DNA of 63,967 bases, the filler included. It is 9 parts of 9 records of this genome, joined end to end, with 100 filler letters (N's around TTAATTAATTAA, not from the genome) between each part and the next. Parts side by side here need not be neighbours in the genome. Positions count along the whole stretch, not along the records: positions 1 to 5,690 come from SRR31156797_89970; 8 more parts are not named here. One strand, written 5' to 3'. Shown here piece by piece: positions 1 to 19,649 of the stretch. Within the stretch, counting starts at the first letter, position 1. Each line of letters begins with the position of its first letter. Below the pieces are notes generated by a model that worked only from the letters and a program-made list of their open reading frames with translations, searched no databases and had not been told where the DNA came from. The translations under genes were made by a program, and so were the position numbers.

Positions 1-191
1 ACCGGCCACAACAATAATTGCAATATCAGACGCTATACCCATTTGTATTTAGACCTGAGATAAATTGATGATTACCTATACCCAATTTGAGATAAAAAAT
101 CCTAACCCTGGACCGCGAACGATCAATTTGACATAGTAATAAAATTTGAATTAGAAAGCCACTGGCTTTTAATCGAAAAGGTGGTGCCAAA

Positions 192-2936
192 TTGCAGGGA
201 ATTGTCTTTATCTATGAAGAAAGCCGTTCGATCAAAAACAGCGCGTTAACCGTGCGGATTGAAGAACGGCGGAAAAAGAAAAATACCTGGATGCCTGCGG
301 GCCCGCAAAAAGTGTATACGGCCCGGGACCTTCAACGCCCCGGACTTAAACTCCTGGACAAAACACTTTTTTCCATGGCCTTTAAATCTGAAACCGATTT
401 TAGACAAATGGAAGCACGGTTCTTTTCCCCGGATCAGGAGTATACCCTTTTTAGAATTTCACCATACGATCTTAAGGCCTTTCTTGACCGATGCAATGCC
501 AAAAATCTGTTGTGCAGCAAAGACGGGCGACTGCTTCGGTTTCAGTATGTTAAACAGATAATCCCAGAGATCGTATTCAAGGATTCGGGAAAGGCCTTTG
601 ATGCCTTTCTTGCCATAAACGGACATAAGACGCCTGCACCGTGCTATGAAACCGCATCGAATCCGGTTAGAATCGTATTCGGCACCCGGGTATATGAACT
701 GCCAAAAGGCTTGCCACTGCCGGTTATCAAAGACATGATCCGGGGAAAAACCATTTCCTATGATGAATTTGACGGAACTTTGGCTGAATTGAGCCGGTAT
801 GCCGGCAAGCTCTCCTTGAATATTCCGGGCAGGGGGAAAAAAGTAACCCACCATGCCTCTTTCACGCCGGTACTGGATTTTCACCCCGACTTAAAGTATG
901 CGAATCTGGGGTTTGAATATAAAGGCATCGGTTTGTTACCCATGACAGACACACGCCGGGTTTTGCTGAACCATGAAACCAATCTTGAACTGCACAGAAA
1001 TTTTGCTGGGGAACTAAAATACCGGGACATGCTTAAATGCCATGGTGCCGTCTTCACAAGCCATGCCCCCAAAGATTGTTTTATTCCAAAAGGAAAAAGG
1101 GACAACCTCCTTTATCATGTCCAAAAGCAGGGAGGCATTCTCAAGGTGTCGGGCCGCCGTCTGGTACTGGACATTAAGATGGCCTGGGATATCAAGGCAA
1201 GTCAGGAGGGAATCCTTGTGGGAGGCGCTGTCTGCTACCAGGGAAAACAAACCGGTATGGAAAATATCCTGGACGCCTCCCTTTGCGGAGAGCCCTGGTT
1301 TGATCTTCCCGGTGGGTTAAAAGGGTTTATCCCCCAGGGCCTGGCCCGGGATTTTGAACACCTTGAGCGTCGCGGGGACTTCAGGGATGAGGTGGTCCGG
1401 TTTGATACATATGACCTTTCCTTTATTGCCAAGTTTTTTGACAACAAGGAACGCGTGGTCCGGGATCAGGTTTTTAACCGGTATCTTGCTTTTCTGAAAA
1501 ACAGATGCGCCCCGGACCAGCCGGTAACTGTGCCCAAAACCTTGAAAACTGCACTGCGGCCCTATCAGAAGACCGGGTTTGCATGGCTTCAGGGGCTTGC
1601 CGGGTTTGGATTCTGCGGTATCCTTGCCGATGATATGGGCCTGGGCAAAACCGTGCAGGTCTTAACCTTTCTCCTGGATGTGAAAGAACAATCCGGGGGC
1701 AGACACAAAAGCCTGGTGATTGTTCCCAAAACCTTAATATGGAACTGGGAATCAGAGGCAAAACGGTTTGCCCCGGATTTAAGATTGCTGGTGTATGCAG
1801 GTGCGTCCCGGGATAAATTGCTGTCAGGTCTTTGTGCTGCAGATCTTGTGATCACATCCTATGGCCTGGTCCGGCAGGATGAAAAGTTCTTAACCCGGAC
1901 CTCATGGGACCTGGTTGTCCTGGACGAGGCCCAGGCCATAAAGAACCCCAAGGCACAGATATCCCGATCCGTAAAAGCGTTAAAAGCGGCAAACCGCTTG
2001 TCTTTAACCGGCACGCCCATTGAAAATCGGCCCCTTGACCTATGGAGCCAGTTTGATTTTCTCATGCCCGGTTTCCTGGGGGATAAGACGGTATTTCAAA
2101 CAACCTATGCCGACCAGGACCAGGACGCCTTGAACCGACTTAAAATTCTTACGGCCCCCTTTATCCTGAGAAGAATGAAAAAGCAGGTCTGCCAAGAGCT
2201 GCCACCCAAAACCGAAGTTACCCTTTACTGCGGATTCGGCAAAGAACAAGAAGCCTGCTACGATGAGATCCTTCATGTCGGGAAACGCAAGCTGACAGAG
2301 GGTCAGGAAACTCGGGATTCCCGGACAATGCAAATTTTAACCCTGCTTCTCAGGCTGAGACAGGCGGCCTGCCACCCGGCCCTGGTCACCGGATCAAATC
2401 CGGGGTCCGGGTTCCGGCCGGAGGAATCAAGCCAAAAATTTAAACTGGTCCTGGAAACCGCCCGGGAAATCATTGAAAGCGGTTATAAAATATTGATCTT
2501 TTCACAATTTGTGGCCCTTCTGGATCTGGTGGATCAGATGCTCGGAGCCCACGGCATGAAACGGTTTACCCTATATGGGCGCACAAAAAAACGGCAGGAT
2601 CAGATCCGGGAATTTAAACAAAGCCCAGATCCCTGTGCCTTTCTCATCTCACTGAAGGCCGGTGGCCTGGGGCTGAACCTGACCGAGGCCGGATACGTCT
2701 TTCTTCTGGACCCCTGGTGGAATCCGGCCGTGGAAAATCAGGCCGTGGACAGAAGCTACAGAATTGGTCAGGAAAATCCGGTAACAGTTTACCGGTTCAT
2801 CACCAGAAACTCAGTGGAGGAAAGTATCAGCCGTCTCCAGGCTAAAAAACAGGCCATGGGTAAAGCGGTTCTCGGGCAAAAGGGCCTTTCCGAAGCCTCG
2901 CTTTCCGAAAAAGAACTTTTGGGCTTGATTTATTAA
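192..2936 (+). CDS. SNF2/SWI2-family DEAD/DEAH-box helicase (bacterial)
   Basis: 914 aa ORF with LADDMGLGKT (Walker A), LDEAQAIKN, LTGTPIEN, LKAGGLGLNL and DPWWNPAVENQAVDRSYRIGQ motifs; TTG start uncertain. Confidence 0.93.
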   Translation: MQGIVFIYEESRSIKNSALTVRIEERRKKKNTWMPAGPQKVYTARDLQRPGLKLLDKTLFSMAFKSETDFRQMEARFFSPDQEYTLFRISPYDLKAFLDRCNAKNLLCSKDGRLLRFQYVKQIIPEIVFKDSGKAFDAFLAINGHKTPAPCYETASNPVRIVFGTRVYELPKGLPLPVIKDMIRGKTISYDEFDGTLAELSRYAGKLSLNIPGRGKKVTHHASFTPVLDFHPDLKYANLGFEYKGIGLLPMTDTRRVLLNHETNLELHRNFAGELKYRDMLKCHGAVFTSHAPKDCFIPKGKRDNLLYHVQKQGGILKVSGRRLVLDIKMAWDIKASQEGILVGGAVCYQGKQTGMENILDASLCGEPWFDLPGGLKGFIPQGLARDFEHLERRGDFRDEVVRFDTYDLSFIAKFFDNKERVVRDQVFNRYLAFLKNRCAPDQPVTVPKTLKTALRPYQKTGFAWLQGLAGFGFCGILADDMGLGKTVQVLTFLLDVKEQSGGRHKSLVIVPKTLIWNWESEAKRFAPDLRLLVYAGASRDKLLSGLCAADLVITSYGLVRQDEKFLTRTSWDLVVLDEAQAIKNPKAQISRSVKALKAANRLSLTGTPIENRPLDLWSQFDFLMPGFLGDKTVFQTTYADQDQDALNRLKILTAPFILRRMKKQVCQELPPKTEVTLYCGFGKEQEACYDEILHVGKRKLTEGQETRDSRTMQILTLLLRLRQAACHPALVTGSNPGSGFRPEESSQKFKLVLETAREIIESGYKILIFSQFVALLDLVDQMLGAHGMKRFTLYGRTKKRQDQIREFKQSPDPCAFLISLKAGGLGLNLTEAGYVFLLDPWWNPAVENQAVDRSYRIGQENPVTVYRFITRNSVEESISRLQAKKQAMGKAVLGQKGLSEASLSEKELLGLIY

Positions 2937-3195
2937 ATTCGGGCAGGCGGACTTTGTATTTGACTTTCTCCCTTAATTCGCCTGAAATCATATAACGTTC
3001 ACAGGGGCAATCGCAGGTGAAAATCAAAATTCGGTAGTTGAACTTCTCCTTTGCCTTCCAGGCAGCCGTCAGTTTAATCTCCAATAATTTTGATTTACCA
3101 GACTGTCAGAGAATCAATATATTACAGCGGCTCTCGGTGAAAAAACTGTAAATTTTCACAGAAAATAAGGAATTCTGGCAAGCAATATAATATTT

Positions 3196-3999
3196 TTAAA
3201 AATTTTCAAACAGGGTTTTCTCTCTAAATTTTTGAAATTCATAATTTGAATATATCAACTCATTTGCCTCCTTAGGACCTGACTGTGAAACCGTATATAA
3301 TAAGGATACCTCTTTGAAGTTAAAATCTTTGAATACTTCTCGGATATCTGGATGGTCGTTGATGGAAAGCATAAACTTGCCCTGGATATTTTTCAATACT
3401 GTTTCTAAGGCAATGAAATCATCTATAATAAAGTTGTGCTTATAGTCCGGGCAAAGATAATACGGCGGATCGCAGTAAAAAAAAGAATCCGGAGTGTCAT
3501 AGCGAAGGATCAGGTCTTTCCAGGACAGGTTTTCTATCCGGACATTTGCCAGTCGAAGGTGGATGTCAGACATCTCCTCTTCCAGGCGCAGGATATTTAT
3601 TCTGGGTGTGCGGCCGTCAATCTGGACGCCGTATGAACGGTTGCGGACACGGCCACCAAAGGCCAGGCGCTGGACATAGTAATACCGAGCCGCCTTTTGT
3701 ATGTCGGTCAGCCCTCGGCCCTCCAGTTGGTTTTTCCAGTCGTCAAACCATTCCCGTGATGTCAGCAGCCATTTGAACTGTTTCAAAAATTCTTCCAGGT
3801 GATTCTGGACTACTCTATAAAAGGATATCAGATCGCTGTCCAGGTCGTTTATCACTTCGACTTTTGACGGTTGTTTGGCAAAAAACACCCATGCGCCACC
3901 AGAAAAGGCTTCACAATATACCCTATGTTCCGGAATGAGAGAGGTGATTTGTTTCGATAGTTTAGATTTGCCGCCTATATACGCAAGAGGGCTTTTCAT
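3196..3999 (-). CDS. Prophage D12-class DNA adenine methyltransferase (Dam-like)
   Basis: SPLAYIGGKSKL, YCEAFSGG, INDLD and DPPY motifs; ATG at 3999 preceded by an AAAGGA SD (the ORF track extends to GTG 4059). Confidence 0.92.
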   Translation of the reverse strand: MKSPLAYIGGKSKLSKQITSLIPEHRVYCEAFSGGAWVFFAKQPSKVEVINDLDSDLISFYRVVQNHLEEFLKQFKWLLTSREWFDDWKNQLEGRGLTDIQKAARYYYVQRLAFGGRVRNRSYGVQIDGRTPRINILRLEEEMSDIHLRLANVRIENLSWKDLILRYDTPDSFFYCDPPYYLCPDYKHNFIIDDFIALETVLKNIQGKFMLSINDHPDIREVFKDFNFKEVSLLYTVSQSGPKEANELIYSNYEFQKFREKTLFENF

Positions 4000-4032
4000 G
4001 GACTTTTTTCCTTTCGCTTGATATACCCCTGA

Positions 4033-4135
4033 TGCTCGGTCCGAGCGGGGAGTCGTCACGCTGTGATGTCTGGTCTGGCAATCTCAGTCCATTCGCTCTG
4101 GAGGTGTTGGCGCACCTATCAGGGCGGCTCTTCTA
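4033..4135 (+). ncRNA. Candidate cis-antisense RNA to the methylase leader (SymR-like hairpin)
   Basis: Hairpins GCTCG-gtc-CGAGC (4034-4046) and CGCTCTGgAGGTG-ttggcg-CACCTatCAGGGCG (4094-4126); upstream TGGACT-17nt-TATACC with TG extension (3999-4027). Confidence 0.4.
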
Positions 4136-4202
4136 TAATAAAATTTTACACAAGATGTATAATGATTGTTATAAAGCCAGTCATGGCGGTGGATGTAGGT
4201 AT

Positions 4203-4508
4203 CTATCTCACATAAATCTTAAAGGTCCCCCAATTTATGCCAGACGTATTGTCTGGGTCATACACGATAACGTCTATTTTGCTTCGGCCTGTCGGGATGT
4301 CGGGTACAAAACCGAGAGAAAGCACAACCACACCACCGCCGGTTGAAAAATCAAACGCCTCAGGATTATCATCAGAGTTTATTGACCACTCTTCCCCTAT
4401 CAACTCCATTTTTGTTATGACCGACAGGTCAACTGCAACCCCGTCAGCCTTTAACAACAGGTCGTTTGTATTGTCCCGGTCTTTAAATACACACTCGACC
4501 ACTCTCAT
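4203..4508 (-). CDS. Phage virion protein, BppU/Ig-like
   Basis: 101 aa beta-rich ORF (AVDLS...GVVVLSL...DVIVYD) in tandem with tail genes. Confidence 0.55.
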   Translation of the reverse strand: MRVVECVFKDRDNTNDLLLKADGVAVDLSVITKMELIGEEWSINSDDNPEAFDFSTGGGVVVLSLGFVPDIPTGRSKIDVIVYDPDNTSGINWGTFKIYVR

Positions 4509-4510
4509 GA

Positions 4511-4900
4511 TTAGCTCGGATCAGAAATCGTAAGGACAATATCCCCGGCAGCAAATTCAACCGTATTCCCCGAAACAATTGGTTGCTGTTGAGCTACCGG
4601 CAAATCATCCGAAGCAATAAGATTTCCCCCGGTGCTGGCGTCATACAACCCCCAATGTGTGACATTGCTGGCAGACCATATATCTGTAGCTTGTGGGAAG
4701 GTTATTGCATTTGCATTTGACAGTGATCCAGCAGCGGCAGCGTTCCAGTCTGTGGTTGCCACAGATTTTCTTGCATAGTTTCCACCCGAGATCTCCACGC
4801 CGGCGCTGGCGGGGTCACCCACAAAAAAGGCCAAATACATAGTTGATCCCGTGACGTCATCGAGCCAGCCATTTTTTACTGATGTTGCAAAGATACCCAT
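4511..4900 (-). CDS. Phage tail/fibre-associated protein
   Basis: YLAFFVGDP..AGVEISGGNYARKSV...NANAITFPQAT..W..VTHWGLYDASTGGNL pattern typical of a widespread phage tail protein family. Confidence 0.8.
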   Translation of the reverse strand: MGIFATSVKNGWLDDVTGSTMYLAFFVGDPASAGVEISGGNYARKSVATTDWNAAAAGSLSNANAITFPQATDIWSASNVTHWGLYDASTGGNLIASDDLPVAQQQPIVSGNTVEFAAGDIVLTISDPS

Positions 4901-4911
4901 AGTGTTTTCCT

Positions 4912-5690
4912 TTATATTGAGTCTATTGTATATTGTGTCGTTAGCGATTCTATCGATGGATCTATGATAACCCCAAGGCCCTCGCCTATCCTTGACAGCT
5001 CACCCACCGCACTGGTAATTGCATCGGCATCACCAGATATAGACAATTTAGCAAATAACTCACCGCCCGCAGATGTTATCGCTTCGATAGTCCCGTAGAT
5101 GCCTTTTTCCACAGACATCACACCGGCCAGTCCGGGTTCAGCTGACACAGCACCGGTCAGGTACAATTTTTCCCCAACCTGTGTAATTGTTATTTGCCCG
5201 GCCGCACCGGCAATTGCCTCCGCGACACCGGACAATCGTTTTGTAGTAGCTGTCTGCCCGGCAATGCCGCTTGTTGCGAATATTGATCCGGATACACCTT
5301 TATTTACAAACAATTGTCCGGATGTGCCGGCCACAGAATCCACGCCGCCTGACAACCTTATGGTGCCCTGCAACAACAATTCACCCTGGACATCCGCAAT
5401 GCCCGATGATGCCCCGGATATTTTTTTACTGATAGAAATCAGGCCACCAGGGAAAGCCTCGGAGACAACCGTGCCTGAAACACGCTTAGACACGACCATA
5501 TGGCCAGCTGCATCTGCATCCCCGATTATGGCCCCATTAACATTTTTTAATACGGAAATTGCGCTGGTGGTTAATCCATCCGCAATGGCTACACCAGCAA
5601 TAGAATTTTCTTTTGAGATATCGGCGTTGGTATTGGCAATCCCGCTTACGCCCCCACTCAAGTTAATAGTGGATTGAGTTGCCCCAGCAG
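4912..5690 (-). CDS. Gly/Ala/Ser-rich repetitive phage fibre-like protein (5' truncated)
   Basis: Frame stays open to the contig end; about 20-aa repeats. Confidence 0.7.
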
Positions 5691-5790
5691 NNNNNNNNNN
5701 NNNNNNNNNNNNNNNNNNNNNNNNNNNNNNNNNNTTAATTAATTAANNNNNNNNNNNNNNNNNNNNNNNNNNNNNNNNNNNNNNNNNNNN
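5691..5790. other. Artificial contig spacer
   Basis: 44 N + TTAATTAATTAA (stops in all six frames) + 44 N; identical spacers at 10863-10962, 17732-17831, 24164-24263, 33734-33833, 44040-44139, 51453-51552 and 57301-57400. Confidence 0.99.
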
Positions 5791-7174
5791 CCAGGTTTTT
5801 TTCAGCGTCTTTATCTTCAGGATCGATTTCCAGGGCCCGGGTATAATTCTCAATCGCTCCGGGCAGGTCGCCCAACCTGAAACTGGCGTTGCCCAGGTTG
5901 TAAAGGGCTTTGCTCTTCAAAGCATTGTCTTCGGCCTCGGAAGCCATTTTATAGTGGTTGCGGGCCGCTTCAAAATCTTCAAGCCGGTAATAGGCGTTGC
6001 CTATGTTGTACATCAGTTCCTTGTTTTCCGGGTCTTCAATCTGGGCGTCCAAAAACGATTTCAAGGCTTTGTCATACTGCTCTGCCCGGTAGGACTCCTC
6101 CCCGGCTTCAATTTTGTCTCTGCTCCCCGCCGCAAGGGCTGTTTGCCAGGGCGTCAGCATGAAAACAAATATAATGGTCAGCACAATTCTTTTGGCGGAA
6201 GAAATAAGAAGATCCGCGACCAGGGCCGCAATTGCCGGGGCCAGCAGCCATTGGTAGCGATCGATGTATAACTTTTTCCGTCCCGCCTCCAGGGTCTGGT
6301 CTTCCATTTTGCCCTTGATCTCTTTCAGATAAATCGTCTCAAGGTCCATGTCCCCGGTGACGGATCGTACATACGCCCCTTTAGTCAAGGCGGCGATTTT
6401 CTGCAAAAGCTCTTCGTCAAGCCTGCTCATTATAATATTTCCGGAAGAATCCTTTTTAAACGATCCGTCATCGCCCGGAATGGGCGCCCCTTCTTCTGCG
6501 CCCATGCCTATACAAAAGATCCTGACGCCTTTTTCCGCGGCTTTTTTCGCGGCGCTGATTGGATTGCCGGTTGTGCTTTCGCCATCCGTGATTAATATGA
6601 TCGCTTTTTCCGTGTTGTCCTTTTCATCAAAAGCATTTAAAGCCGTTTCGATCGCGCCGGCGATGTCCGTCCCGCCAATGGGTAGATAATCCGGGCTCAA
6701 GGCGGTCAGAAAAAGACTGAACGCGCCGTAATCCACTGTCAGGGGGCACTGGAGAAACGACGTTCCTGAAAAAGCGGCCAGACCGATTTTATCCCCCTTG
6801 AGCATGCCCAAAAGATCGTGTATTTCCCTTTTGGCCCTTTCCAGGCGATCCGGTTTTATATCCGCGGCCAGCATACTCCTGGAACAGTCGACAGCCAGGA
6901 TTATACTCACGCCTTTCTGTCTGACTTCCTGCCACGAATAACCGTATTGCAGGCCCGATAGGGCAAAGGCCAAAAACAGAAGGGTGGTAATCACCAAACC
7001 GGCCTTGAGTTGGCGCCTGCCCGAGCTTGGATCCGGATTAATGCTTTCCATGGCCTTTCCGGCGGCATAACGTTTAAGTATGCCTTTTCTTTTGCAGCGG
7101 CCGTACAGGAATACGAGCAACGCCATGGGCGCCGCCCAGATAAGAAACAGCATTTCCATACGAGCAAAAGTCAT
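5791..7174 (-). CDS. batB: BatB-like vWA protein fused to TPR repeats (BatC-like); 3' truncated
   Basis: DCSRSM MIDAS, PDRLERAK, CPLTVDY, ITDGE; C-terminal YNIGNAYY/YNLGNASF TPRs; ATG 7174 overlaps the batA stop. Confidence 0.85.
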
Positions 7175-8169
7175 GGTGCTTTTAAAAACCTTGTGTTGAT
7201 AAGTAATACCCAAACGATCAGCAGCACAAAAGCCGGTAGTAAAAAATACGGGTAAAGATTGTTGTATTCGGCGAAACTCAACACTTCAACCTTGTTTTTT
7301 TCCAACTCGTTGATTGTATCGTATATCTTATTCAGCCCTTCGGAATCTTCGGCCCTGAAATAAAGCCCGCCGGTTTTGGCGGCTATTTTTTTTAGAGTAT
7401 CTTCATCTATATCCACCCGGCGGTGAATAATCCGCTTTCCGCCAAACGGACCGTCCACGATAAACGGCGCCCGACCGCGTCCGCCCACTCCGATAGTGTA
7501 TACTTTCACTCCCGCTTTTGTAACCAGTTCGGCCGCCGCTTCCGGGTGTATTTCCCCGGTATTGCTCCGGCCGTCGGTTAGCAATATTATGACATTGCTT
7601 TTGCTTTCCACGTCTCTTATGCGTTTTAAACTAATGCCCAACGCATCTCCAATGGCAGTCTGCTTGCCGGCCGAACCTATTTTTAAATTGTCAAGGCTGT
7701 GATTAATCGCCTCATAATCCCTGGTCAGCGGCGTTTGAGTATACGCGGCCGATCCAAACACAACCAACCCTATTCGGTCGCCGGTCCGGCCGGAAATAAA
7801 ATCCCGCACCACGCCCTTAACGGCTTCCAGTCTGTTGACGGACTTATTGTCAACTTTGAAATCCAGGGCGGCCATGCTTTCCGACACGTCGACCGCCAAG
7901 ACAATATTTATGCCTTCCGTCACTATCCTGATGTCCTTGACGCCCTTTTGAGGCCCGGCCATGGCCAGGATCATCAGAACCAGGGCGATTATCTTCAAAT
8001 ACGGCAGCATTCGGCTAATTTTTACCATTATCGGTTCCGGCAGGTCCAATCCTGTTCCCGTCAGGGCCATGCGCAAAGCCGGGGTGAGCTTTTTTCTCCC
8101 CTGGTAAATTATCAAACCGGCCGGGATAATCAGCAGAAATAGAAAATACGGCGAACTAAACCGGAGCAT
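7171..8169 (-). CDS. batA: BatA-like vWA membrane protein
   Basis: DVSESM MIDAS, DRIGLVVFG, TAIGDAL, LLTDG, KVYTIGVG; N- and C-terminal TM helices. Confidence 0.9.
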   Translation of the reverse strand: MLRFSSPYFLFLLIIPAGLIIYQGRKKLTPALRMALTGTGLDLPEPIMVKISRMLPYLKIIALVLMILAMAGPQKGVKDIRIVTEGINIVLAVDVSESMAALDFKVDNKSVNRLEAVKGVVRDFISGRTGDRIGLVVFGSAAYTQTPLTRDYEAINHSLDNLKIGSAGKQTAIGDALGISLKRIRDVESKSNVIILLTDGRSNTGEIHPEAAAELVTKAGVKVYTIGVGGRGRAPFIVDGPFGGKRIIHRRVDIDEDTLKKIAAKTGGLYFRAEDSEGLNKIYDTINELEKNKVEVLSFAEYNNLYPYFLLPAFVLLIVWVLLINTRFLKAP

Positions 8170-8773
8170 CTTCAGACTCCCTGCTGGTTTCAATTACGAG
8201 TTCCCGTATAATAACAAGGTCCTTTTTCATCTTTTCCGGCGCGGCCCCGAAACCGGCGAATTTAACAGGGTCGGCCTCCCTCGAAAGGTTTTTCACTCTT
8301 ATTATCAAATCCCGGTCAATCTCAAGTTCATCCAGCACGGGCGTCAGTTCTTCCGTAGTCATTTCCATGGCCTTTACGGCAAACCGCTTTTCGATATATG
8401 TCCTGAAAATCTCGGAAAGCCTGAAATAAAAAACCCTGGCTTGCAGGTTATCGGCGTTTTCAAGTTCATCCAGCCCCTTCAGGGCTGTTTTTTCAGGCGG
8501 AATGATTTCAGTAACCGGAGGCTTGTTTTTCAATTTCCTTAAATAAAGGAAAATCAGGACGGCCAGGATGATTAGAACTAATAACCCTGCACCATAATAA
8601 AGCCAGGTCCAGTCCGGGGGAAGTTCCAACAATGGTTTAATATCAAGGATGTCCGTCATTTCCTCAGGCGGCTGCTGGTCTTGGGCCCAGGCCGCCGAGG
8701 ATAATGTCGCTGCCGCACCGGCGTAAAATAAACGCCTTGCATGTTTCTTTATAGGGAATTGCCGGCTTTTCAT
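8156..8773 (-). CDS. Bat-operon single-TM hypothetical protein
   Basis: Signal-like N-terminus, DIKPL, TM helix, LSEIFRTYIEKRF..AMEMTTEE, AD.VKFA pattern; between DUF58 and batA. Confidence 0.75.
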   Translation of the reverse strand: MKSRQFPIKKHARRLFYAGAAATLSSAAWAQDQQPPEEMTDILDIKPLLELPPDWTWLYYGAGLLVLIILAVLIFLYLRKLKNKPPVTEIIPPEKTALKGLDELENADNLQARVFYFRLSEIFRTYIEKRFAVKAMEMTTEELTPVLDELEIDRDLIIRVKNLSREADPVKFAGFGAAPEKMKKDLVIIRELVIETSRESEDAPV

Positions 8774-9648
8774 TTTATCCGTCTCTCCCGGTAACGGAAA
8801 AATGTATAGAGAGCTTCCGCCGCATTGCTATCGGTCGATAAAGCAATCGAGTCGATTTTAGCCCGTTTTAATTCCTCAAGAGTATCTCTGTGCGCTTTCC
8901 GCCTGGCGTCAATATAGGTTCCCCTCATTCTTTTGTCGGAACAGTCAATGAAAAAACGGGCGCTCGTCTCCAGATCCTCCGCTTCGAGTATTCCGGCGTC
9001 CGGCAGAGTAAAATCCCCGGGATCCGAAACAACCGCCGCAATGCAATCATGCTTGCGATTGGCTCGTTTGAGGGACTCAATATACCCGGAGGACAGAAAA
9101 TCCGAAATTATGAAGGAAACGGTTCTCTTCCTGCTTACCTTGGCCAGGAAATCCGCTGAAGAACTTATATCGGTTCCCCTGTGCTCGGGAACAAAACTGA
9201 GTATTTCTTTTATGACCCTCCAGACATGCGAGGCGCCTTTTTGGGGCGGAATGTAACGCTCCACCCGGTCCGTAAAAAGTATGGCCCCTATTTTGTCATT
9301 ATTTCGAATGGCGTTAAAGGCGAGGATGGCCGCAATTTCACATGACGCCTCCCGTTTAAGGTTGTCCCCGGTTCCAAACAACCCGGATGCGCTCATGTCC
9401 ACCATCAGCATAATGATCAGTTCCCGCTCTTCCCTGTATAGTTTTACATAGGGGCGCCCCATCCTGGCCGTGACTTTCCAGTCAATGCTCTTTATCTCGT
9501 CGCCCGGAGTGTATTCCCGGACTTCTTCAAATTCAATGCCCGCCCCCCGGAAAGCGCTCCGATACTGGCCGGCCATTACCGTATCCACGGCCCGCCGCCC
9601 GGCGACATGAATTCTCTTTATTTTTTTTATCAACTCAGGAGTCAACAT
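8770..9648 (-). CDS. DUF58 family protein
   Basis: GIEFEEVREYTPGDEIKSIDWKVTAR, EERE, ISDF. Confidence 0.93.
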   Translation of the reverse strand: MLTPELIKKIKRIHVAGRRAVDTVMAGQYRSAFRGAGIEFEEVREYTPGDEIKSIDWKVTARMGRPYVKLYREERELIIMLMVDMSASGLFGTGDNLKREASCEIAAILAFNAIRNNDKIGAILFTDRVERYIPPQKGASHVWRVIKEILSFVPEHRGTDISSSADFLAKVSRKRTVSFIISDFLSSGYIESLKRANRKHDCIAAVVSDPGDFTLPDAGILEAEDLETSARFFIDCSDKRMRGTYIDARRKAHRDTLEELKRAKIDSIALSTDSNAAEALYTFFRYRERRIK

Positions 9649-9667
9649 GAAACTTGTCCGATTATTA

Positions 9668-10648
9668 TCAGGGTACTTCTATCGAATCGAAAATCCTGTT
9701 TATAACGTCTTCGGAAGCAACGTCCTCGGCTTCGGCTTCATAAGTTAAAAGCACCCTGTGGCGCAATATATCAGGGGCGACCGTCTTGATATCCTGCGGC
9801 GTAACAAACGCCCGGCCCTTAATAAAGGCAAAGGCCCTGGCCGCCATGGAAAGATAAATGGTGGCCCGCGGCGAAGCCCCGAACTCGATATAATGTTCCA
9901 AGTCTTCCAATCCGTAATCGGAGGGCTTCCTGGTGGCGAACACTATGTTTAAAATGTAATCCAGCAGTTTTTCATCCAACAGGATGTCGCCTATTATCGC
10001 TCTTATGTCGTTTAAATCCGAAGGAGTTATGACCGGGGCGGGGTGCACTTCACGCTCGGTTCCAAAATGACGGGCTATCTCCCTTTCTTCATCCTTGGTT
10101 GGATAATCGATTTTCAGCTTGAGCATGAACCTGTCCACCTGGGCCTCGGGCAGGGGATAGGTGCCTTCCTGTTCTATGGGATTTTGAGTGGCCAGTACCA
10201 GGAAAGGATCCGGCAAGGGGAATGTTTCCCCGCCTATGGTTATCTGCCTTTCCTGCATGGCTTCCAGTAAAGCCGACTGGACTTTGGACGGGGCCCGATT
10301 TATTTCGTCCGCTAAAATGATGTTATGAAAAAGCGGTCCTTTTTTAACCGTAAAATCGCCTGTTTGCGGCTGATACACTTCGGTGCCCAACAAGTCGGCC
10401 GGCAGGAGGTCCGGCGTGAACTGAATCCGTTTAAAATCGGCCTGGATAGCCGCGGCAAGAACTTTTACCGTCAATGTCTTGGCCAGGCCCGGCACTCCCT
10501 CGATAAGTATATGGCCTTTGGTGAACAGACCAATCAGCAGCCTTTCCACCAGGGTATGCTGGCCGATAATTATTTTTCCTATTTCATTGCGCAGCCCGTT
10601 AACCAAAAGGCTCTTTTCCCCAATTTTCGCCGTAAGCTCTTCGAGCAT
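9668..10648 (-). CDS. moxR: MoxR family AAA+ ATPase
   Basis: EGVPGLAKT, RIQFTPDLLPAD, DEINRA, ATQNPIEQEGTYPLPEAQVDRF. Confidence 0.96.
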   Translation of the reverse strand: MLEELTAKIGEKSLLVNGLRNEIGKIIIGQHTLVERLLIGLFTKGHILIEGVPGLAKTLTVKVLAAAIQADFKRIQFTPDLLPADLLGTEVYQPQTGDFTVKKGPLFHNIILADEINRAPSKVQSALLEAMQERQITIGGETFPLPDPFLVLATQNPIEQEGTYPLPEAQVDRFMLKLKIDYPTKDEEREIARHFGTEREVHPAPVITPSDLNDIRAIIGDILLDEKLLDYILNIVFATRKPSDYGLEDLEHYIEFGASPRATIYLSMAARAFAFIKGRAFVTPQDIKTVAPDILRHRVLLTYEAEAEDVASEDVINRIFDSIEVP

Positions 10649-11068
10649 TGCTTTAACTCCTGTAAGTCATATGTCTATTGTGGTCAATTACTCCAAAAAC
10701 CAAAGTAACATATAAATAGGCGGCGCATATTGTCAAGATTTTGATAAGGCAATACGCTTCTTTGATAATAGTTCATATCATGGGATCCGCCCGGAAAAGG
10801 CCCGACTGATTAAAAAGCGAAAATTTCTTGCCTAGTGTCTGTCCAGAAATGAGAAATTTTTTNNNNNNNNNNNNNNNNNNNNNNNNNNNNNNNNNNNNNN
10901 NNNNNNTTAATTAATTAANNNNNNNNNNNNNNNNNNNNNNNNNNNNNNNNNNNNNNNNNNNNGTTCTGTTCAGATAATGTTCAGATTTGTTAAGGACTTC
11001 TTTATGTTATTTCCGCCGCCCCCCGGTCGATAATGTGAGAGAAATCAAGTAATTGCTGACGGGGTAGA

Positions 11069-11257
11069 ATGATGATGAAGAGTTTAGATACCATACTGAT
11101 TGCCATTGTCCTTATCACTCTGTTCTTTCCGAGGCTGCTCCATGGGACGGAGCCTGACGCCTCAGGCCGGGGTGATTCGGTTTCTGTCCTGGAGAAGAGA
11201 GTCCTCCAGGAGGGGAACCCCTGTTACGGGATCTTCCCGGCGGAAAGGACATCCTAA
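11069..11257 (+). CDS. Small putative exported protein
   Basis: 62 aa with a hydrophobic signal-like N-terminus and a GGGG purine tract upstream. Confidence 0.4.
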   Translation: MMMKSLDTILIAIVLITLFFPRLLHGTEPDASGRGDSVSVLEKRVLQEGNPCYGIFPAERTS

Positions 11258-11422
11258 GGTCTTTCCATTTGATTTCTCTGTGAAGAAACGCTCTTTCCAC
11301 TGGACGGTCTCATATGGTAGAATCCGTCCGGAACCGATTTTTCCTCTGGCCTTTTCGCAGGGTCTTTCTGCATAGCCTGATTGTGGAGATACGGTTCTGA
11401 TAAGATTTAACGGAAGGAAGCC

Positions 11423-12421
11423 ATGAGCGGAAAAATCGTATTAACAGGTATCAAACCCACCGGAATGCCTCATCTGGGAAACTATCTGGGCGCTATCAAG
11501 CCCGCCCTCGGCCTGGCCGAACAGTATGAGACTACCCGGTTCTTTATCGCCGACTATCATTCGCTGAACAGTATAAAGGATCCTGCTCAGCTCAGAAGCT
11601 ATACCTACGAGATCGCCGCCTGCTGGCTGGCATGCGGTCTGGATCCGGAGAAGACTCTCCTCTACAGGCAGTCGGACGTACCCGAGACCTTCGAACTGAC
11701 CACCATGATCATGGCCTTCACTTCCAAGGGATTGATGAACAGGGCCCATGCCTACAAGGCCCAGGTGGACCAGAACCGGGAGAAGGGGAAGCCCGAGGAT
11801 CACAACATCAACATGGGACTCTACACCTACCCCGTTCTCATGGCTGCGGACATCCTCCTCTTCGACACCAACTACGTCCCCGTCGGGAAGGACCAGGTCC
11901 AGCATATCGAGATGGCTGTGGATATCGCCCAGGCTGTGAATCGCAATTATAAGACCGAACTGCTGACCCTTCCCGAGGCGGTCGTATCGGAAACCACCCA
12001 GGTCATCACCGGAATGGACGGACGGAAGATGAGCAAGAGCTATGACAATACCATCCCTCTTTTCATTCCCGAGAAGAAGCTGAAGAAGCTCTGCAACAAG
12101 ATCGTGACCAATTCCCAGACCGTGGAAGAGCCCAAGGATCCGGATAACTGTAATGTTTTCACCCTTTACAAGCTCTTCGCTACCGAAGAGGAACAGAAGG
12201 CCCTGGCCGAACGCTACAGGGCCGGCGGTATGGGTTGGGGCGAAGCCAAGGCCGAGCTGTTTCGCGTTCTGAACCAGACGATCAGTCCCATGCGGGACCG
12301 CTACGACGAACTGATGGCGGATACCTCCCATATCGACAGGGTCTTGGCTGAAGGGGCGGCGAAGGCCCGGAAATTGGCGGCTGCCAAGATCGCTATGCTC
12401 CGGGATGCCATGGGTTTTTAA
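11423..12421 (+). CDS. trpS: Tryptophan--tRNA ligase
   Basis: TGIKPTG.PHLGNY, YPVLMAADIL, VPVGKDQ.QH, KMSKS. Confidence 0.97.
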   Translation: MSGKIVLTGIKPTGMPHLGNYLGAIKPALGLAEQYETTRFFIADYHSLNSIKDPAQLRSYTYEIAACWLACGLDPEKTLLYRQSDVPETFELTTMIMAFTSKGLMNRAHAYKAQVDQNREKGKPEDHNINMGLYTYPVLMAADILLFDTNYVPVGKDQVQHIEMAVDIAQAVNRNYKTELLTLPEAVVSETTQVITGMDGRKMSKSYDNTIPLFIPEKKLKKLCNKIVTNSQTVEEPKDPDNCNVFTLYKLFATEEEQKALAERYRAGGMGWGEAKAELFRVLNQTISPMRDRYDELMADTSHIDRVLAEGAAKARKLAAAKIAMLRDAMGF

Positions 12422-12482
12422 TGCCCCGCTCCTGTGAGGAGCGAGATTTCTTAACGAATACTTAACGAAGTCCCGAATAAAG

Positions 12483-12511
12483 GGGAAATTCTGCTGAATT
12501 TCCCTTTTTTT
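12483..12511 (+). terminator. Rho-independent terminator of trpS
   Basis: GGGAAATTC-tgct-GAATTTCCC followed by T7. Confidence 0.8.
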
Positions 12512-12512
12512 A

Positions 12513-12529
12513 TTGGCATGGATCTTGTA
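12513..12529 (+). promoter_or_regulatory. Sigma-54 (-24/-12) promoter-like element
   Basis: TTGGCAT-ggatc-TTGTA versus consensus TGGCAC-N5-TTGCW, about 30 nt upstream of ATG 12559 with an AAGGAGG SD. Confidence 0.6.
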
Positions 12530-12558
12530 TTCCCTATTAGCCCGAAGGAGGGCAAACG

Positions 12559-13479
12559 ATGGTTGACTACATAACCCACCAGGCCCTGGTGTACCAGGCG
12601 TCGTGCCGAGGACGGTTCCGGTTCGAGTACAGGCGACAGTTCCTGAACGATCTGAGCGTCCATATCTATATCTATCCCGGAATGAGGAACGCCCTCAGCG
12701 AGGAGGAGTGGAGCGAGTTCTTTCTGAGCTTTCTGGGAAAGCTCCCCGATATTCTGATGCACTATGAATTCCAGGGCCCGTCCTTTCTCAACTACCTTAA
12801 CCGTCTGATGGACTGGCATCTGAAAAGCTACTACAGGAGCTGTGAGAGGCAGCGCCAGGAGTGCTGGGTCCACGAGAGGGAATCCTTTCTCAACGGCTCC
12901 CTCTGCAGCGGCCAGGAAGGAAGGGCGGAGAGCCGCAAAACCCTGGCGGAGAAGATCGAGAGCGTCTTCAGTCGCTGCGACATGCCTCGGATCAGGCGGG
13001 AAGCCCTGCGGCAGAGGCTTCTGGTTCTGGTGTTGAAAAACGCGGCGATCCTGGATGAGGACGATTTCCTGACGGCCTTCCCCCTGCTGGGGCCGGAGCC
13101 GGAAGAGGCCATGGGCATGCGCGCTCATCTGCTGTCTACCCTTGAGATGAAAACCGCCCGCAGGGACGCCCTCGGGCTGAAGCGAAACGAGAGCTATTTC
13201 CGTCTGGCCATGGCTTCCAAGCGTCTGGACGAGGCCGTGTCCGGAAAGGTCCGGGAAGAGCTGGAGGGGAAGATCCTTCTCTATCGCCGCAGACTGCGGA
13301 GGCTGGATGAGCGGATACGCCGCATTCCCATGGTGCCCAGCAATGAGGAGATCGCAGGCGTACTGGGCCTTCCCAAGGGAACGGTGGATTCGGGGCTCTA
13401 CTACCTCCGGTTGTTTCTGCGGGATCTGAAGGAAAGAGAGATCAGTTCTCTGGAGGATCTGAGCGACTCCCGGCGCTAA
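12559..13479 (+). CDS. Divergent sigma-70-like / HTH protein
   Basis: C-terminal SNEEIAGVLGLPKGTVDSGL resembles the sigma region 4.2 HTH; N-terminal part resembles region 2 (GPSFLNYL). Confidence 0.6.
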   Translation: MVDYITHQALVYQASCRGRFRFEYRRQFLNDLSVHIYIYPGMRNALSEEEWSEFFLSFLGKLPDILMHYEFQGPSFLNYLNRLMDWHLKSYYRSCERQRQECWVHERESFLNGSLCSGQEGRAESRKTLAEKIESVFSRCDMPRIRREALRQRLLVLVLKNAAILDEDDFLTAFPLLGPEPEEAMGMRAHLLSTLEMKTARRDALGLKRNESYFRLAMASKRLDEAVSGKVREELEGKILLYRRRLRRLDERIRRIPMVPSNEEIAGVLGLPKGTVDSGLYYLRLFLRDLKEREISSLEDLSDSRR

Positions 13480-13629
13480 TCATAGCTCTGCAGCGGACCT
13501 TCCCTGCGGAGAGGGCGTCGCGGGAGCTGCGGGGGACGCAGCGGCAGGGGGCCCCATCGGGATGTTCGAAAGGCTCGGTTTGCCGGTTATCATTGCTTTT
13601 TACATCTCTGTCGGATTATCATTTCTCCT

Positions 13630-14217
13630 ATGGAAATAGTATTAGCCACAGGAAACATGCATAAAAAACAGGAGCTGGAGCAGATTCTCTCCGGCCATAC
13701 CATTCTGATCCCCTCCGATCTGGGAGTGGACTTCGACTGCGATGAGACGGGAACCACCTTTCTCGCCAACGCCAGACTGAAGGCGGAAACCCTCTACGCC
13801 CAGGTGAAACGACCGGTCCTGGCCGACGACTCGGGACTCTGCGTCAGGGCCCTGGACGGAGAACCGGGCATCTACTCGGCCCGCTACGGCTCGGAGAACG
13901 GAAAGACGCTCAGCGATACCGAACGCTATGAGCTCCTTCTGAAGAACCTGGAGGGCGTGGAGGACCGGGGGGCCCACTTCGTCTGCGCCATGGTTCTGAT
14001 CATGGCTCCCTACAGGGAGTTCGCCGTACAGGAGACCTTCGACGGCAGCATAGCCTCCTCTCCTTTCGGCGGAGGCGGCTTCGGCTACGATCCTATCTTC
14101 ATCGACGCCCTCTCCGGGAAAACCGCCGCTGAGCTCACGGCGGAGGAGAAAAACCGCGTTTCCCACCGGGGCAAGGCCGGAAAGGCCATGGCCGCCCTGC
14201 TGGAGGCCCTTTCATGA
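13630..14217 (+). CDS. rdgB: RdgB/HAM1 non-canonical purine NTP pyrophosphatase
   Basis: ATGN.HK..E, ADDSGL, PGIYSARY, GFGYDPIF, EKNRVSHRGKA. Confidence 0.96.
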   Translation: MEIVLATGNMHKKQELEQILSGHTILIPSDLGVDFDCDETGTTFLANARLKAETLYAQVKRPVLADDSGLCVRALDGEPGIYSARYGSENGKTLSDTERYELLLKNLEGVEDRGAHFVCAMVLIMAPYREFAVQETFDGSIASSPFGGGGFGYDPIFIDALSGKTAAELTAEEKNRVSHRGKAGKAMAALLEALS

Positions 14218-16016
14218 GCCGGGATCTGAGACTGCGCAAGGACGTACCTGCCGGGGACAGATGGGACCTGAGCTCCCTCTTTGTCGACGAGGCCTCCTGG
14301 GAGGACGGCCTGAAGGAGTATGAGGCCCTGATTCCCCGGATCGAATCCTTCAAGGGAACCCTGGGAGAGGGGGCCGCACGGCTGAGAGAGTGCCTTGATT
14401 TCTTCAATATGCTGGAGATGCTGGAAGAGAGTCTGGGATACTACGCCATGCTCCGCAAGGAGGAGGATGTGGCCGACAGCGATTCGGCTGGCCGCTTCAC
14501 CCGCTACATGGCCGTCGCCACCAGGAGCAGCGCCGAATCCAGCTTTCTGAAGCCGGAGATTCAGTCCCTGCCGGATGAACAGCTGGACTCCTATCTGGCC
14601 GATCCGCTGCTGCAGGACTTTCGCATCCCCCTGGAGCGGATGATCCGCTACAAGCCCCATATCCTTTCCGAAGGGGAGGAGCGCCTCCTGGCCCGGCAGG
14701 CAGAGTCGGCGCAGGTGGCCCGCAAGGCCTTCTCCGCTCTGACCAACGGGGATATGGATTTCGGGAAGCTGACGGTGGAGGGTGAGGAGAAGCCTCTGAC
14801 CAACAGCAGCTACGGTGTCTTTATGCTTCATCCCGACCGGGAGCTCCGGAAGAAGGCCTTCGGGCAGTTCTATTCCGTCTTCGAAGGGCATAAGAACACC
14901 CTCGGCGAGCTGTACAGCGGCAGCGTCCTCCGGGATATCTATACCGCGCGAAGCCGGGGCTTTGAGACGGCCCGGGAGGCGGCCCTCTTCCCCGACAATG
15001 TGCCCGGGGATGTTTACGACAGCCTTGTGTCCTCTGTCTCTGATAATCTGGAGCCCCTTCACCGCTACTACGCCCTGCGGAAAAAGGTCCTGGGCCTGGA
15101 TGAGATGCGGCTTTACGATACCAAGGTTTCCCTGATTCCCGACGTCAATGTGAAGACTAGCTACGACGAGGCTGTGGGTATGGTTCTGGAAGCCCTGAAA
15201 CCTCTGGGCGAGGAATACGGCAGAACCATCGCCGGCGGTTTGCGGGGGACATGGGTGGACCGCTATGAGAACAAGGGCAAGCGTTCGGGCGCCTTCTCGG
15301 CGGGATCCTACAAGGGCGATCCCTACATCCTGATGAACTTCAAGGAAGACGACCTGCGTCATGTTTTCACACTGGCCCATGAGGGAGGGCACTCCATGCA
15401 CTCCTGGTACTCTGTGAGAAACAATCCCTTCCAGACCTACAGCTACACCATATTCGAGGCCGAGGTGGCCTCCACATTCAACGAACAGCTTCTGGCCCGT
15501 TACCTGTCAGACCGTTCGGAGAGCCGGGAGATGACCCTCCATCTCCTGGGACGTCAGATCGACGATATACTGGCCACCATCTACAGGCAGACCATGTTTG
15601 CCGAGTACGAGCTCAGATGCCACAGCCTGGCTGAGGAGGGACAGCCTTTGACGGTGGACGCCTTGCGCAGCGAGTACAGGCTGCTCCTTGAGAAATACTT
15701 CGGCAAAGCCGTGGCCCTTGAGGACGAGGCGGATCTGGAGGGACTGAGGATTCCCCATTTCTACCGGGCCTACTACGTATACAAGTACGCCACTGGTCTT
15801 TCCGCAGCCATGGCCCTGTCCGAGATGGTTCTGGAAGGAGGGGAGGCCGAGAGGGATCGCTATCTGGGATTCCTCAAATCCGGCGGAAGCCGTTTCCCCC
15901 TGGATTCCCTGAAGGCCGCGGGGGTGGATATGAGCCGTCCCGACGCGGTCAACCGGGCCCTGGGCCGTTTCGCCCGGCTGGTGGATCAGCTGGAGAAGGA
16001 ACTGCTTTCTCTCTGA
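14214..16016 (+). CDS. pepF: Oligoendopeptidase F (M3B)
   Basis: WDLS, KGKRSGAFS, TLAHEGGHSMHS, AEVASTFNE, RIPHFY..YYVYKYATG. Confidence 0.95.
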   Translation: MSRDLRLRKDVPAGDRWDLSSLFVDEASWEDGLKEYEALIPRIESFKGTLGEGAARLRECLDFFNMLEMLEESLGYYAMLRKEEDVADSDSAGRFTRYMAVATRSSAESSFLKPEIQSLPDEQLDSYLADPLLQDFRIPLERMIRYKPHILSEGEERLLARQAESAQVARKAFSALTNGDMDFGKLTVEGEEKPLTNSSYGVFMLHPDRELRKKAFGQFYSVFEGHKNTLGELYSGSVLRDIYTARSRGFETAREAALFPDNVPGDVYDSLVSSVSDNLEPLHRYYALRKKVLGLDEMRLYDTKVSLIPDVNVKTSYDEAVGMVLEALKPLGEEYGRTIAGGLRGTWVDRYENKGKRSGAFSAGSYKGDPYILMNFKEDDLRHVFTLAHEGGHSMHSWYSVRNNPFQTYSYTIFEAEVASTFNEQLLARYLSDRSESREMTLHLLGRQIDDILATIYRQTMFAEYELRCHSLAEEGQPLTVDALRSEYRLLLEKYFGKAVALEDEADLEGLRIPHFYRAYYVYKYATGLSAAMALSEMVLEGGEAERDRYLGFLKSGGSRFPLDSLKAAGVDMSRPDAVNRALGRFARLVDQLEKELLSL

Positions 16017-16134
16017 TCACGGGGACCGGGAATCCTCCGGCCTCCGGGTCGGAGGATCTGAGGGTGGAATGCGTATGACCGGTTGATCGGTTCGATCTCC
16101 TCCCGATTCAGGTCCGTGTCCAGGGATCGGGGTT

Positions 16135-16809
16135 TTAGTAGCTCTTTCCGTAGCCTTCCACCGTATCCCAGTCTATGGTCTGCCCTATCCTGGCGGCCAG
16201 GGCCTCCATGTCTTCGTCGTCATGGTAGAGCAGGGGGGCCTTGCTCACCTCGAGGCGACCGTCGGTTTCGCTGATTCTGACGGCGTTGTGGTGGCTGCCT
16301 TCCATAGGCTGGGAGAAGCGCTCATCCAGATCGCCCATCTCGATTTTGCCGTTGCAGAGACAGAAGTAGGTGGTGACCGGATCCTCTCTCTTCACAAAGA
16401 AGCTGGTCCCCCTGATTCCCGCCACCACGGAACCCGAATTAACGGAAAAGGTCTGGTCCATGGCCTTGATCAGGCTGCCTATATTCCTCAGTATGGCGGC
16501 GGCCGCCCCCTTGTCCAGATTCAGTTCCGCCTCCTTGAAGGAGAGGCGTATGATGGAATCTTCAAATACCCTGATGATATTACTGCCCAGAAACTGTATC
16601 TCACAGTAGGACCCGGCATCCGTTTTTATCACGTCCCCGTCCCTGACCACAGCGCCTTCATCCGCTTTCTCATTTCCCACCGTCACGACGCCCTCCATGG
16701 CGACGATCTTGCCCGTGATGGCGATGGCTTCCGTTCCGCTGTCCCTCTTTCCGCTGCAGGAGGAGAGGAGGGCTAACAGGATAATTGTGCAAAGGGCATA
16801 ACGTTTCAT
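16135..16809 (-). CDS. FecR-domain lipoprotein
   Basis: MKRYALCTIILLALLSSC lipobox; GDVIKT, VAGIRGTSFFV; the longer ORF-track call overlaps serS and is an artefact. Confidence 0.8.
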   Translation of the reverse strand: MKRYALCTIILLALLSSCSGKRDSGTEAIAITGKIVAMEGVVTVGNEKADEGAVVRDGDVIKTDAGSYCEIQFLGSNIIRVFEDSIIRLSFKEAELNLDKGAAAAILRNIGSLIKAMDQTFSVNSGSVVAGIRGTSFFVKREDPVTTYFCLCNGKIEMGDLDERFSQPMEGSHHNAVRISETDGRLEVSKAPLLYHDDEDMEALAARIGQTIDWDTVEGYGKSY

Positions 16810-16878
16810 GCCGACTCCTTTGTTTTCTCTTTCAAATGAATTGATCAATAAATTTCTATCTGTTACTATCTCAATACT

Positions 16879-17731: not shown

Positions 17732-17831
17732 NNNNNNNNNNNNNNNNNNNNNNNNNNNNNNNNNNNNNNNNNNNNTTAATTAATTAANNNNNNNNNNNNN
17801 NNNNNNNNNNNNNNNNNNNNNNNNNNNNNNN

Positions 17832-17857
17832 AAGGGCACGGCGCGCCGCGCCCCTAC
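17832..17857 (-). repeat. GTAG-family REP-like palindrome
   Basis: Minus strand GTAG-GGGCGCGGCGCGCCGTGCCC, at the contig end downstream of thiolase. Confidence 0.6.
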
Positions 17858-17895
17858 AGTCAAACAATTCGAGAAACCACCGTCAATGGGAACAC

Positions 17896-19134: not shown

Positions 19135-19649
19135 AATACCCTCCAATGTTTATATACCGGCTTAATCCTCTAATGGAAAGAGGCTCCCATCAGCTGATAT
19201 AATGCCTGGTTTTAAACGGCTTAACCGGCTTACAGGCGCAGTCGACAAAAGACCGGCAGTGACAGGGGCGCCAATTTGGCAATGTCTATTACTATCGCGG
19301 CCAATGCGTCGATATGCTTGAGCCAAGCCGTCTATTGCTTCCGGCCTTAACCCTATGCAAATCTGTTTGTTACTCTTTCTTGAAATCCGGGGTGCGTTTT
19401 TTTGCGAAAGCCTTGAATCCTTCATGACAACCGTGTGAAAACGCCGGACTATAGTTTCCGTGAAATCCAACGCGTTGTCCACCAATTTTTAATACACCGC
19501 ACTAATAAAAATATCAGTGATTTCTTTTTCGCCGCCTCTTGAGGCCGTCATGTAGAGATATACGGGGCTATTCGGCGTCCGGTTCGCGACGCCTGGGTGT
19601 TTTCAATTGCGCCGAATTCCGGCGTTCATTGATTAATTGGCGCTGGGAC

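Follow-up and report, generated by a model that had tools for sequence, protein, structure and literature searches.

A candidate structured antisense RNA opposite the leader of a phage-derived D12-class adenine methylase gene

The 203-nt gap upstream of a gene for a D12-class N6-adenine DNA methyltransferase (hereafter the methylase), carried on the minus strand at 3196–3999, appears on balance to hold a gene of ~100–115 nt for a structured RNA, which would be encoded on the plus strand and would form one control module with the methylase leader. The locus lies in a stretch of 63,967 nucleotides (the window), in which nine parts from nine records of one genome are joined end to end with 100 filler letters between each part and the next; positions 1–5690 come from record SRR31156797_89970, and all coordinates count along the window. 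Judging from the comparison with related loci, it is very probable that a plus-strand RNA gene is indeed present, and it is likely, at somewhat lower confidence, that the RNA controls the methylase. The best-supported reading is a two-part lock, in which a cis-antisense RNA made from an opposed promoter would act together with a leader that masks its own start codon.

Covariation and strand of the fold

Homologous loci were collected by a protein search with the methylase, which gave 93 of them, 53 in genomes and 40 in viral contigs. About 140 nt upstream of the methylase is conserved among metagenome-assembled genomes (MAGs) of Desulfobacterota and viral contigs, with obvious compensatory changes, and within the gap the conserved element spans ~115 nt on the plus strand, opposite the methylase leader. 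Two alignments were analysed, one made with MAFFT (A2, 35 sequences) and one fitted to a covariance model (A3, 56 sequences). In A2, 95.4% of the cells in the fold are paired and 25 of the 37 base pairs show compensatory changes, a result that none of 500 shuffles equalled; in A3 the corresponding values are 95.5% and 35 of 37. When the helix partners were slid against each other as a control, pairing fell to 40–50% (40–48% in A2).

The same alignments bear on which strand folds. On the antisense strand, the 1976 cells of A3 comprise 1651 Watson–Crick pairs, 237 G·U pairs, 24 A·C combinations and 64 others, and one base pair is G·U in 50 of 52 sequences; the fold mirrored onto the sense strand is just 84.8% paired. 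A3 is biased towards the antisense strand, having been fitted to an antisense model, and the counts based on the MAFFT alignment agree with it: structures predicted by RNAalifold for each strand separately contain 166 G·U against 13 A·C on the antisense strand and 17 G·U against 86 A·C on the sense strand. For 34 of 35 sequences, RNAfold gave the core a more stable structure on the antisense than on the sense strand, with a mean gap of 9.2 kcal/mol, a count that is weak by itself because GU-rich strands fold better by composition. As far as such comparisons can tell, it is on the plus strand, opposite the methylase leader, that an RNA structure is selected. The initial annotation of this DNA, which had proposed an antisense RNA here, was in this respect well founded, since strong conservation and compensatory changes were found in the homologous upstream regions and the plus-strand fold was favoured.

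The fold is predicted to consist of a 5′ hairpin followed by a four-way junction. The 5′ hairpin, Pa (GCUCG-GUC-CGAGC, plus strand, 4034–4046), is 96.5% paired across the family in this first helix, with compensatory changes at three of its five base pairs. The junction as a whole occupies 4047–4133 of the plus strand and would be built from helix P1 (4047–4054/4126–4133), helix Pb (4055–4059/4063–4067, opening with the near-invariant wobble G4055·U4067), helix Pc (4071–4077/4085–4091) and helix Pd (4095–4106/4113–4125). The letters that join these helices, GAUG-U and UUC, are invariant or nearly so across the family. Pd corresponds to the second of two hairpins singled out in the initial annotation (4094–4126), in which T4097·G4123 and G4101·T4119 are wobbles on the plus strand and C·A mismatches on the minus strand. 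The promoter-like boxes, both hairpins and the better plus-strand pairing of the second were all found where that annotation had placed them. Taken as a single sequence, the region folds at −48.9 kcal/mol on the plus strand (146 nt, z −1.9) and at −37.5 kcal/mol on the minus strand (156 nt, z −1.3). A single sequence is weak evidence, and it is because the features are conserved and covary in relatives that they stand beyond chance in the window. The family covariance model, R1, has a single match in the window, at 4014–4144 on the plus strand (107.4 bits, E 1e-26), a score on a par with those of the relatives.

A second perfect 7-nt inverted repeat, CCCTGAT/ATCAGGG, lies at 4027–4033 and 4118–4124. 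Through it, the 5′ strand of Pd as mirrored in the sense leader could pair with the stretch that follows the leader hairpin, and this may provide an alternative pairing.

The putative opposed promoter and the possible masking of the start codon

A promoter-like element precedes the fold on the plus strand at 3999–4027, with TGGACT as the −35 box (3999–4004), a 17-nt spacer, TG at 4019–4020 and TATACC as the −10 box (4022–4027). It overlies both the ATG and the AAGGA ribosome site of the methylase. Across the family, TGnTA provides the sole invariant letters outside the fold, just 5′ of it, and 43 of the 50 members have it where it is expected. Spacing was counted in 47 anchored sequences, with the seven members lacking TGnTA left out: TTG stands 17 or 18 nt before the TAnnnn hexamer in 30 of the 47, as compared with four or fewer at any other offset farther upstream, and a further nine occurrences at an offset of 4 nt represent overlap with the TG of the TGnTA box. 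The conserved TTG is complementary to a CAA found in front of the GGAG ribosome site of the methylase. In the group with short leaders, to which the window belongs, TGGACT takes the place of TTG at 17 nt. Together, TTG or TGGACT, the 17/18-nt spacer and TGnTA read as a putative extended −10 promoter, and do so on the antisense strand only. A consensus promoter scan missed it in the window because the −10 box lacks the final T. The transcript is predicted to start at ~4034, the first base of Pa, so that the promoter site suggested in the initial annotation coincides with a conserved promoter-like element, and the start near 4033 suggested there agrees with the predicted one. A possible 3′ end is provided by an A/U-rich tail at 4134–4147 on the plus strand, with UUUU at 4144–4147; over the 15 nt that follow P1 across the family, the fraction of T is 0.49 and that of A 0.24.

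The opposite strand has features of its own. The methylase starts at the ATG at 3999–3997 on the minus strand, homologues aligning from residue 1, and its translation initiation region (minus strand, 3997–4013) comprises AAGGA at 4013–4009 and AGUCCAUG at 4004–3997. Seven nucleotides of Pc on the plus strand, AGTCCAT at 4086–4092, are identical to the methylase start region and form with ATGGACT at 3998–4004 a 7-nt inverted repeat (I1) of 100% complementarity. In the methylase mRNA, the leader sequence AUGGACU can accordingly pair with AGUCCAU(G) at the start codon, and does so in both the minimum free energy and the centroid folds of the minus strand. The pairing is not confined to the window, for the leader segment complementary to Pc covaries with the methylase start region, from about −10 to +9, across the family; examples of such partners are GCUGUUCAU opposite AUGAACAGC, AUAGGACA opposite UGUCCUAU and GAGACAUU opposite AAUGUCUC. 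Leaders pair with their own start region at −13.7 kcal/mol and with those of the other 36 sequences at −9.7 kcal/mol, a difference inflated by relatedness, with three members skipped; none of 10,000 permutations was as low. In members that start with GUG, the leader/start pairing includes G·U pairs on the sense strand. The sense leader may therefore be able to mask its own start codon, and both strands appear to be under constraint at the RNA level, for a four-way junction on the antisense strand and for start-codon masking on the sense strand.

If these two features work together as a lock, the antisense promoter would be occupied and would fire as long as late phage transcription is off. Stray sense transcripts would pair with an excess of antisense RNA and be inactivated, and any leader that escaped the antisense RNA would mask its own start codon. 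The methylase would be made only when strong late transcription overran the antisense promoter and titrated the RNA. A more elaborate arrangement, which we consider rather unlikely, is a two-strand riboregulatory switch of an undescribed kind, in which the antisense helix, being a copy of the ribosome-binding region, would compete for the masking stretch of the leader, such that lock, key and keyhole would reside in the same DNA. The state of the switch would then be set by a protein bound to the four-way junction, possibly the methylase, a host RNA chaperone or a Com-like factor.

Besides the composition effect and the model bias mentioned above, several observations weigh against the lock. 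The direction of control is unconstrained by any of the results, repression being an inference, and repression rather than activation is accordingly proposed only tentatively, at slightly less than an even chance. Some members show little or no pairing with the start region, the best partner lying 0–25 nt after GCGAA in 19 of 43. As for the promoter, seven of the 50 members (L016, L019, L021, L023, L026, L030 and L037) lack TGnTA at the expected place, and the last base of the −10 box is T in only 11 of 47. An outer extension of Pa begins right after the −10 box and is kept in nearly all of the 35 sequences, with no clear strand preference; if this outer stem were part of the antisense RNA, transcription would have to start farther upstream than predicted, and we read it instead as a hairpin of the sense leader. 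Lastly, a run of at least four T within 18 nt after P1 is present in only 27 of 56 members, the window among them, and no canonical terminator was called.

Distribution and genomic setting

R1 matches the window and 55 of the 93 loci, and each of these matches lies opposite the methylase and a short way upstream of it; nine weak matches on the other strand (E 0.047–0.83) are noise. A second model, R2, added six loci among the 31 remaining ones that were searched, six duplicates and one 1-kb fragment having been set aside, which brings the total with the element to 61 of 93. The closest genome loci belong to Desulfobacteraceae MAGs, with 72–85% methylase identity, and the additions made by R2 reach MAGs of Leptospiraceae, Spirochaetota and Fibrobacterota. 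In five whole genomes, all 12 model matches adjoin a D12 methylase gene. The genes around the pair differ from locus to locus (tail genes, lysis genes), which implies that RNA and methylase move together. Beyond these loci, R2 with strict filters had a match in one of 150 other genomes sampled evenly from the phylum; its occurrence is thus sporadic, which is what one would expect of cargo carried by prophages.

Three Desulfosarcina-type genomes carry the RNA-plus-methylase module four times (G002), four times (G003) and twice (G001), and thus seem to host several related prophages each. Desulfosarcina variabilis and D. widdelii have two and four copies, respectively. In another genome, a Desulfobacula MAG (L009), the match to the methylase begins at residue 8, and the DNA upstream is unrelated, looks coding and is without the RNA element; there, an insertion may have broken up the module.

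Six named phages out of six have a match upstream of the methylase and on the opposite strand, with scores of 12.6–34.8 bits: phiHAP-1 (34.8), UMP151 (24.6), B3 (23.1), MuM16-1 (20.2), KS9 (12.7, or 20.5 with R2) and TJ1 (12.6). In B3 (NC_006548, L098) the match lies at 1182–1309, upstream of the com-dam pair and on the strand opposite to it, and overlaps the tiny annotated open reading frames (ORFs) B3ORF45 and B3ORF46 (L098 1061–1286), which may be mis-annotations over an RNA gene. The Shewanella phage MuM16-1 encodes just downstream of the methylase a C4 zinc-ribbon ‘nucleic acid-binding protein’ of 58 aa (L096 2431–2607), a possible Com-like partner. The methylase ends ~10 bases or less from the contig end in many viral contigs of 33–38 kb, and in MuM16-1 it is found at the right end; the terminal position in the contigs recalls that of mom in Mu.

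A second type of leader is present in L010, L012–L014, L028, L033, L044, L063, L071, L073 and L090, from Spirochaetota, Leptospira and other MAGs. Its layout is the same, with a closing helix, a long GC hairpin, CGATCC (which contains a GATC site) and a short hairpin. R2 reaches only some members of this type.

In the window itself, the methylase is full length (267 aa) and matches Pfam PF02086 (E 6e-33) and PHROG 56, ‘DNA methyltransferase’ (E 3e-88); the preceding minus-strand ORF stops at 4203. The initial annotation had pointed to an in-frame GTG at 4059–4057. This codon is present and open to the methylase frame (ORF 3196..4059). It is ruled out as the start, given that homologues begin at the ATG at 3999 and that the region 5′ of this ATG is a conserved structured non-coding element. 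Sequence that looks phage-derived is limited to ~2.5 kb (3196–5661), which includes, upstream of the methylase, a 129-aa Gp80-like ORF (Pfam Gp80, PHROG 240) and two other small ORFs that had no family match. Downstream of the methylase and convergent with it is a gene for a 914-aa SNF2/helicase-C protein (plus strand, 192–2936), and beyond the small upstream ORFs follows a VWA/TPR (Bat-like) operon (minus strand, 5735–9648). The methylase–RNA module is a remnant or small island between host genes rather than part of a full prophage. Of the ‘prophage adenine methylase’ of the initial annotation, the phage origin stands, and its location within a recognisable prophage does not. No tRNA that might mark an integration site was found within 1–20000, composition revealed no clear island, and blastn with 3900–4300 returned no match in the phage collection or in E. 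coli genomes. With regard to a Com-like gene, the 203-nt gap has no ORF of at least 40 aa on the methylase strand. An 80-aa ORF at 2842–3084 was rejected for this role and treated as spurious, since nothing in Pfam or PHROG matches it and part of it coincides with the end of the convergent helicase gene.

Alternative readings, known systems and implications

The antisense RNA might activate the methylase instead of repressing it, by covering the masking stretch of the leader or by directing duplex cleavage that removes it, either of which would open translation. This has to be reckoned with, because Pc is a near copy of the start region: what the RNA can pair with perfectly is consequently the masking stretch and not the start region. 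With transcription predicted to begin near 4034, the ribosome site and the start codon would also stay outside the overlap, and in Mu mom and phage B3 an inhibitory mRNA structure is opened by a positive factor, Com (PMC6483171, in the part available; B3 annotation). A constitutive activator would, however, make masking pointless unless the antisense promoter were regulated, of which there is no sign here. Most known cis-antisense RNAs over 5′ leaders, moreover, act as repressors. We regard an activating role as rather improbable. Still less probable is that only the sense strand matters, the gap being a cis-regulatory leader, either bound by a Com-like protein or folded like a riboswitch, that gives rise to no antisense RNA. 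Such a leader would account for the covarying pairing with the start region, including its sense-strand G·U pairs, and for an extended hairpin by the TAnCA box that several members, L002, L008, L043 and L078 among them, form better on the sense strand. It would not account for the strand signature of the junction, where 237 of the 1976 cells would become A·C on the sense strand, as compared with 24 G·U, one of these positions being near-invariant. Even the structure predicted from the sense alignment itself has 86 A·C against 17 G·U, and TGnTA with TTG at 17/18 nt forms a promoter on the antisense strand only.

The elaboration of the fold raises a different possibility, namely that of a free-standing phage non-coding RNA that acts in trans, by binding a protein or host targets, and has no tie to the methylase beyond travelling with it. 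Antisense pairing would indeed not require a structure as elaborate as a four-way junction with invariant GAUG-U and UUC. The constancy of the arrangement makes such an RNA improbable, for the 12 matches in whole genomes and all locus matches adjoin a D12 methylase in the same opposed orientation amid varied neighbours, and Pc tracks the methylase start region. We attach very little probability to an element that works as DNA, be it a protein-binding site or a hairpin of single-stranded DNA, with no RNA made: inverted repeats can be protein sites, and nothing more specific speaks for it, whereas compensatory changes at 35 of the 37 pairs, in which one kind of base pair is freely exchanged for another, and a 10:1 excess of G·U over A·C, are the signature of an RNA folded on one strand.

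Least probable of all is a diverged member of the SymR family of type I antitoxin RNAs. The initial annotation had stated that SymR of E. coli carries the core of the second hairpin, GTGTTGGCGCAC, and had described the RNA as SymR-like. The identity is exact, as the 12-mer lies within the annotated symR 3′ hairpin of E. coli K-12 (L094 2887–2898), and it occurs once in the K-12 chromosome; both RNAs, furthermore, lie opposite a 5′ leader. However, the 12-mer is present in just four of the 56 family members, within a helix tip that covaries, and the gene opposed here encodes no protein of the SymE type. The Rfam symR model (RF01809, threshold 61 bits) found nothing at E ≤ 10 in 3700–4500 or 3990–4160 of the window, and gave 95.3 bits to E. 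coli SymR as a positive control. Applied to symR, R1 with filters off returned a local 26-nt match at the hairpin tip (8.4 bits, E 0.12), and R2 nothing at E ≤ 1. What stands of the SymR-like antisense RNA is thus the antisense fold, which covariation supports, and not the kinship with SymR; the shared 12-mer we attribute either to chance or to convergence of GC-rich hairpin tips.

What the element shares with SymR, apart from this identical tip, is the working principle only: the RNA is small and lies opposite the 5′ end of a gene that does harm, and its promoter, putative in the present case, is placed over the start of the same gene (Kawano et al. 2007, PMC1891008, in the part available). 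SymR measures 77 nt and has its promoter embedded in the symE coding sequence, according to the same source, and in the K-12 annotation symR overlaps the 5′ coding end of symE, start codon included, by 6 nt. The present element differs in its length of ~100–115 nt, in its four-way junction and in the nature of the opposed gene, a D12 methylase (PF02086). Its −35-like TGGACT overlaps the ATG, and the predicted start is ~34 nt upstream of the ATG, beyond the ribosome site.

The closest described system is the com-mom region of phage Mu, which has the divergent promoters momP1 and momP2 (PMC4287176, available part) and in which Com opens an inhibitory structure of the mom mRNA (PMC6483171 and PMC3299994, available parts). 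In both cases the gene concerned modifies DNA and often stands last in a Mu-like phage, and its expression is held back by an opposed promoter beside it and by folding of the mRNA that conceals the start codon, both of which are predictions for the locus described here. The putative opposed promoter here precedes a conserved folded RNA, whereas momP2 is not known to have a structured RNA product. Also unlike Mu, there is no com-like ORF in the gap of the window; in phage B3, com and the RNA element occur together. Adenine methylases are known at the mom position of Mu-like prophages, namely hin1523 of FluMu, that of Pnme1 and ORF48 of B3 (Drozdz et al. 2012, PMC3299994), and the same paper cites, for the 5′ end of hin1523, possible sites of Com binding and regulatory elements. 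These are genes of the same kind in the same place, and the available part of that paper describes no antisense RNA for them.

The literature searched yielded no description of an antisense RNA over the leader of a prophage or Mu-like adenine methyltransferase gene. Rfam 15 likewise had no match at gathering score in the whole window or in 20 related loci (121 kb). Around the element, matches at E ≤ 10 were confined to RT-17, mir-374, mir-1842 and HOTAIR_2, all far below their thresholds, with RT-17 and the two microRNA models at E 1.1 or worse. Small RNAs that pair with a neighbouring or overlapping leader are familiar from phages and plasmids, and include sar of P22, OOP of lambda, c4 of P1 (Rfam C4) and plasmid countertranscripts. 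These consist of one to three simple stem-loops, as opposed to the four-way junction of the present element. The D12-methyl RNA motif is reportedly a candidate structured RNA found upstream of D12 methylase genes, attributed to Weinberg and colleagues in 2017. The main text of PMC5737381 does not use the term, its supplements may hold the motif, and no Rfam match to a D12-methyl family was obtained from a copy of Rfam in which the presence of the motif was unverified. At the level of an Rfam entry, the element would be a new RNA family, and the module appears to be one not described so far and common to many phages.

The module has a bearing on the biology of phages and their hosts. Orphan adenine methylases of phages protect phage DNA from restriction and can rewrite the methylation pattern of the host, and it is for these reasons that silencing of the methylase in lysogens would matter to both. 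The range of the element extends from Desulfobacterota and phages of Pseudomonas, Halomonas, Shewanella and Burkholderia into Spirochaetota. Across this range it offers a testable logic of control, in which a single gene would be acted on by a promoter opposed to it across the start codon, by an antisense RNA that folds and by a leader that masks itself; phage B3, phiHAP-1 and MuM16-1 are cultivable carriers. It may, in particular, bear on how expression is controlled in those Mu-like phages that have a methylase in place of mom and no apparent com, as is the case in the window.

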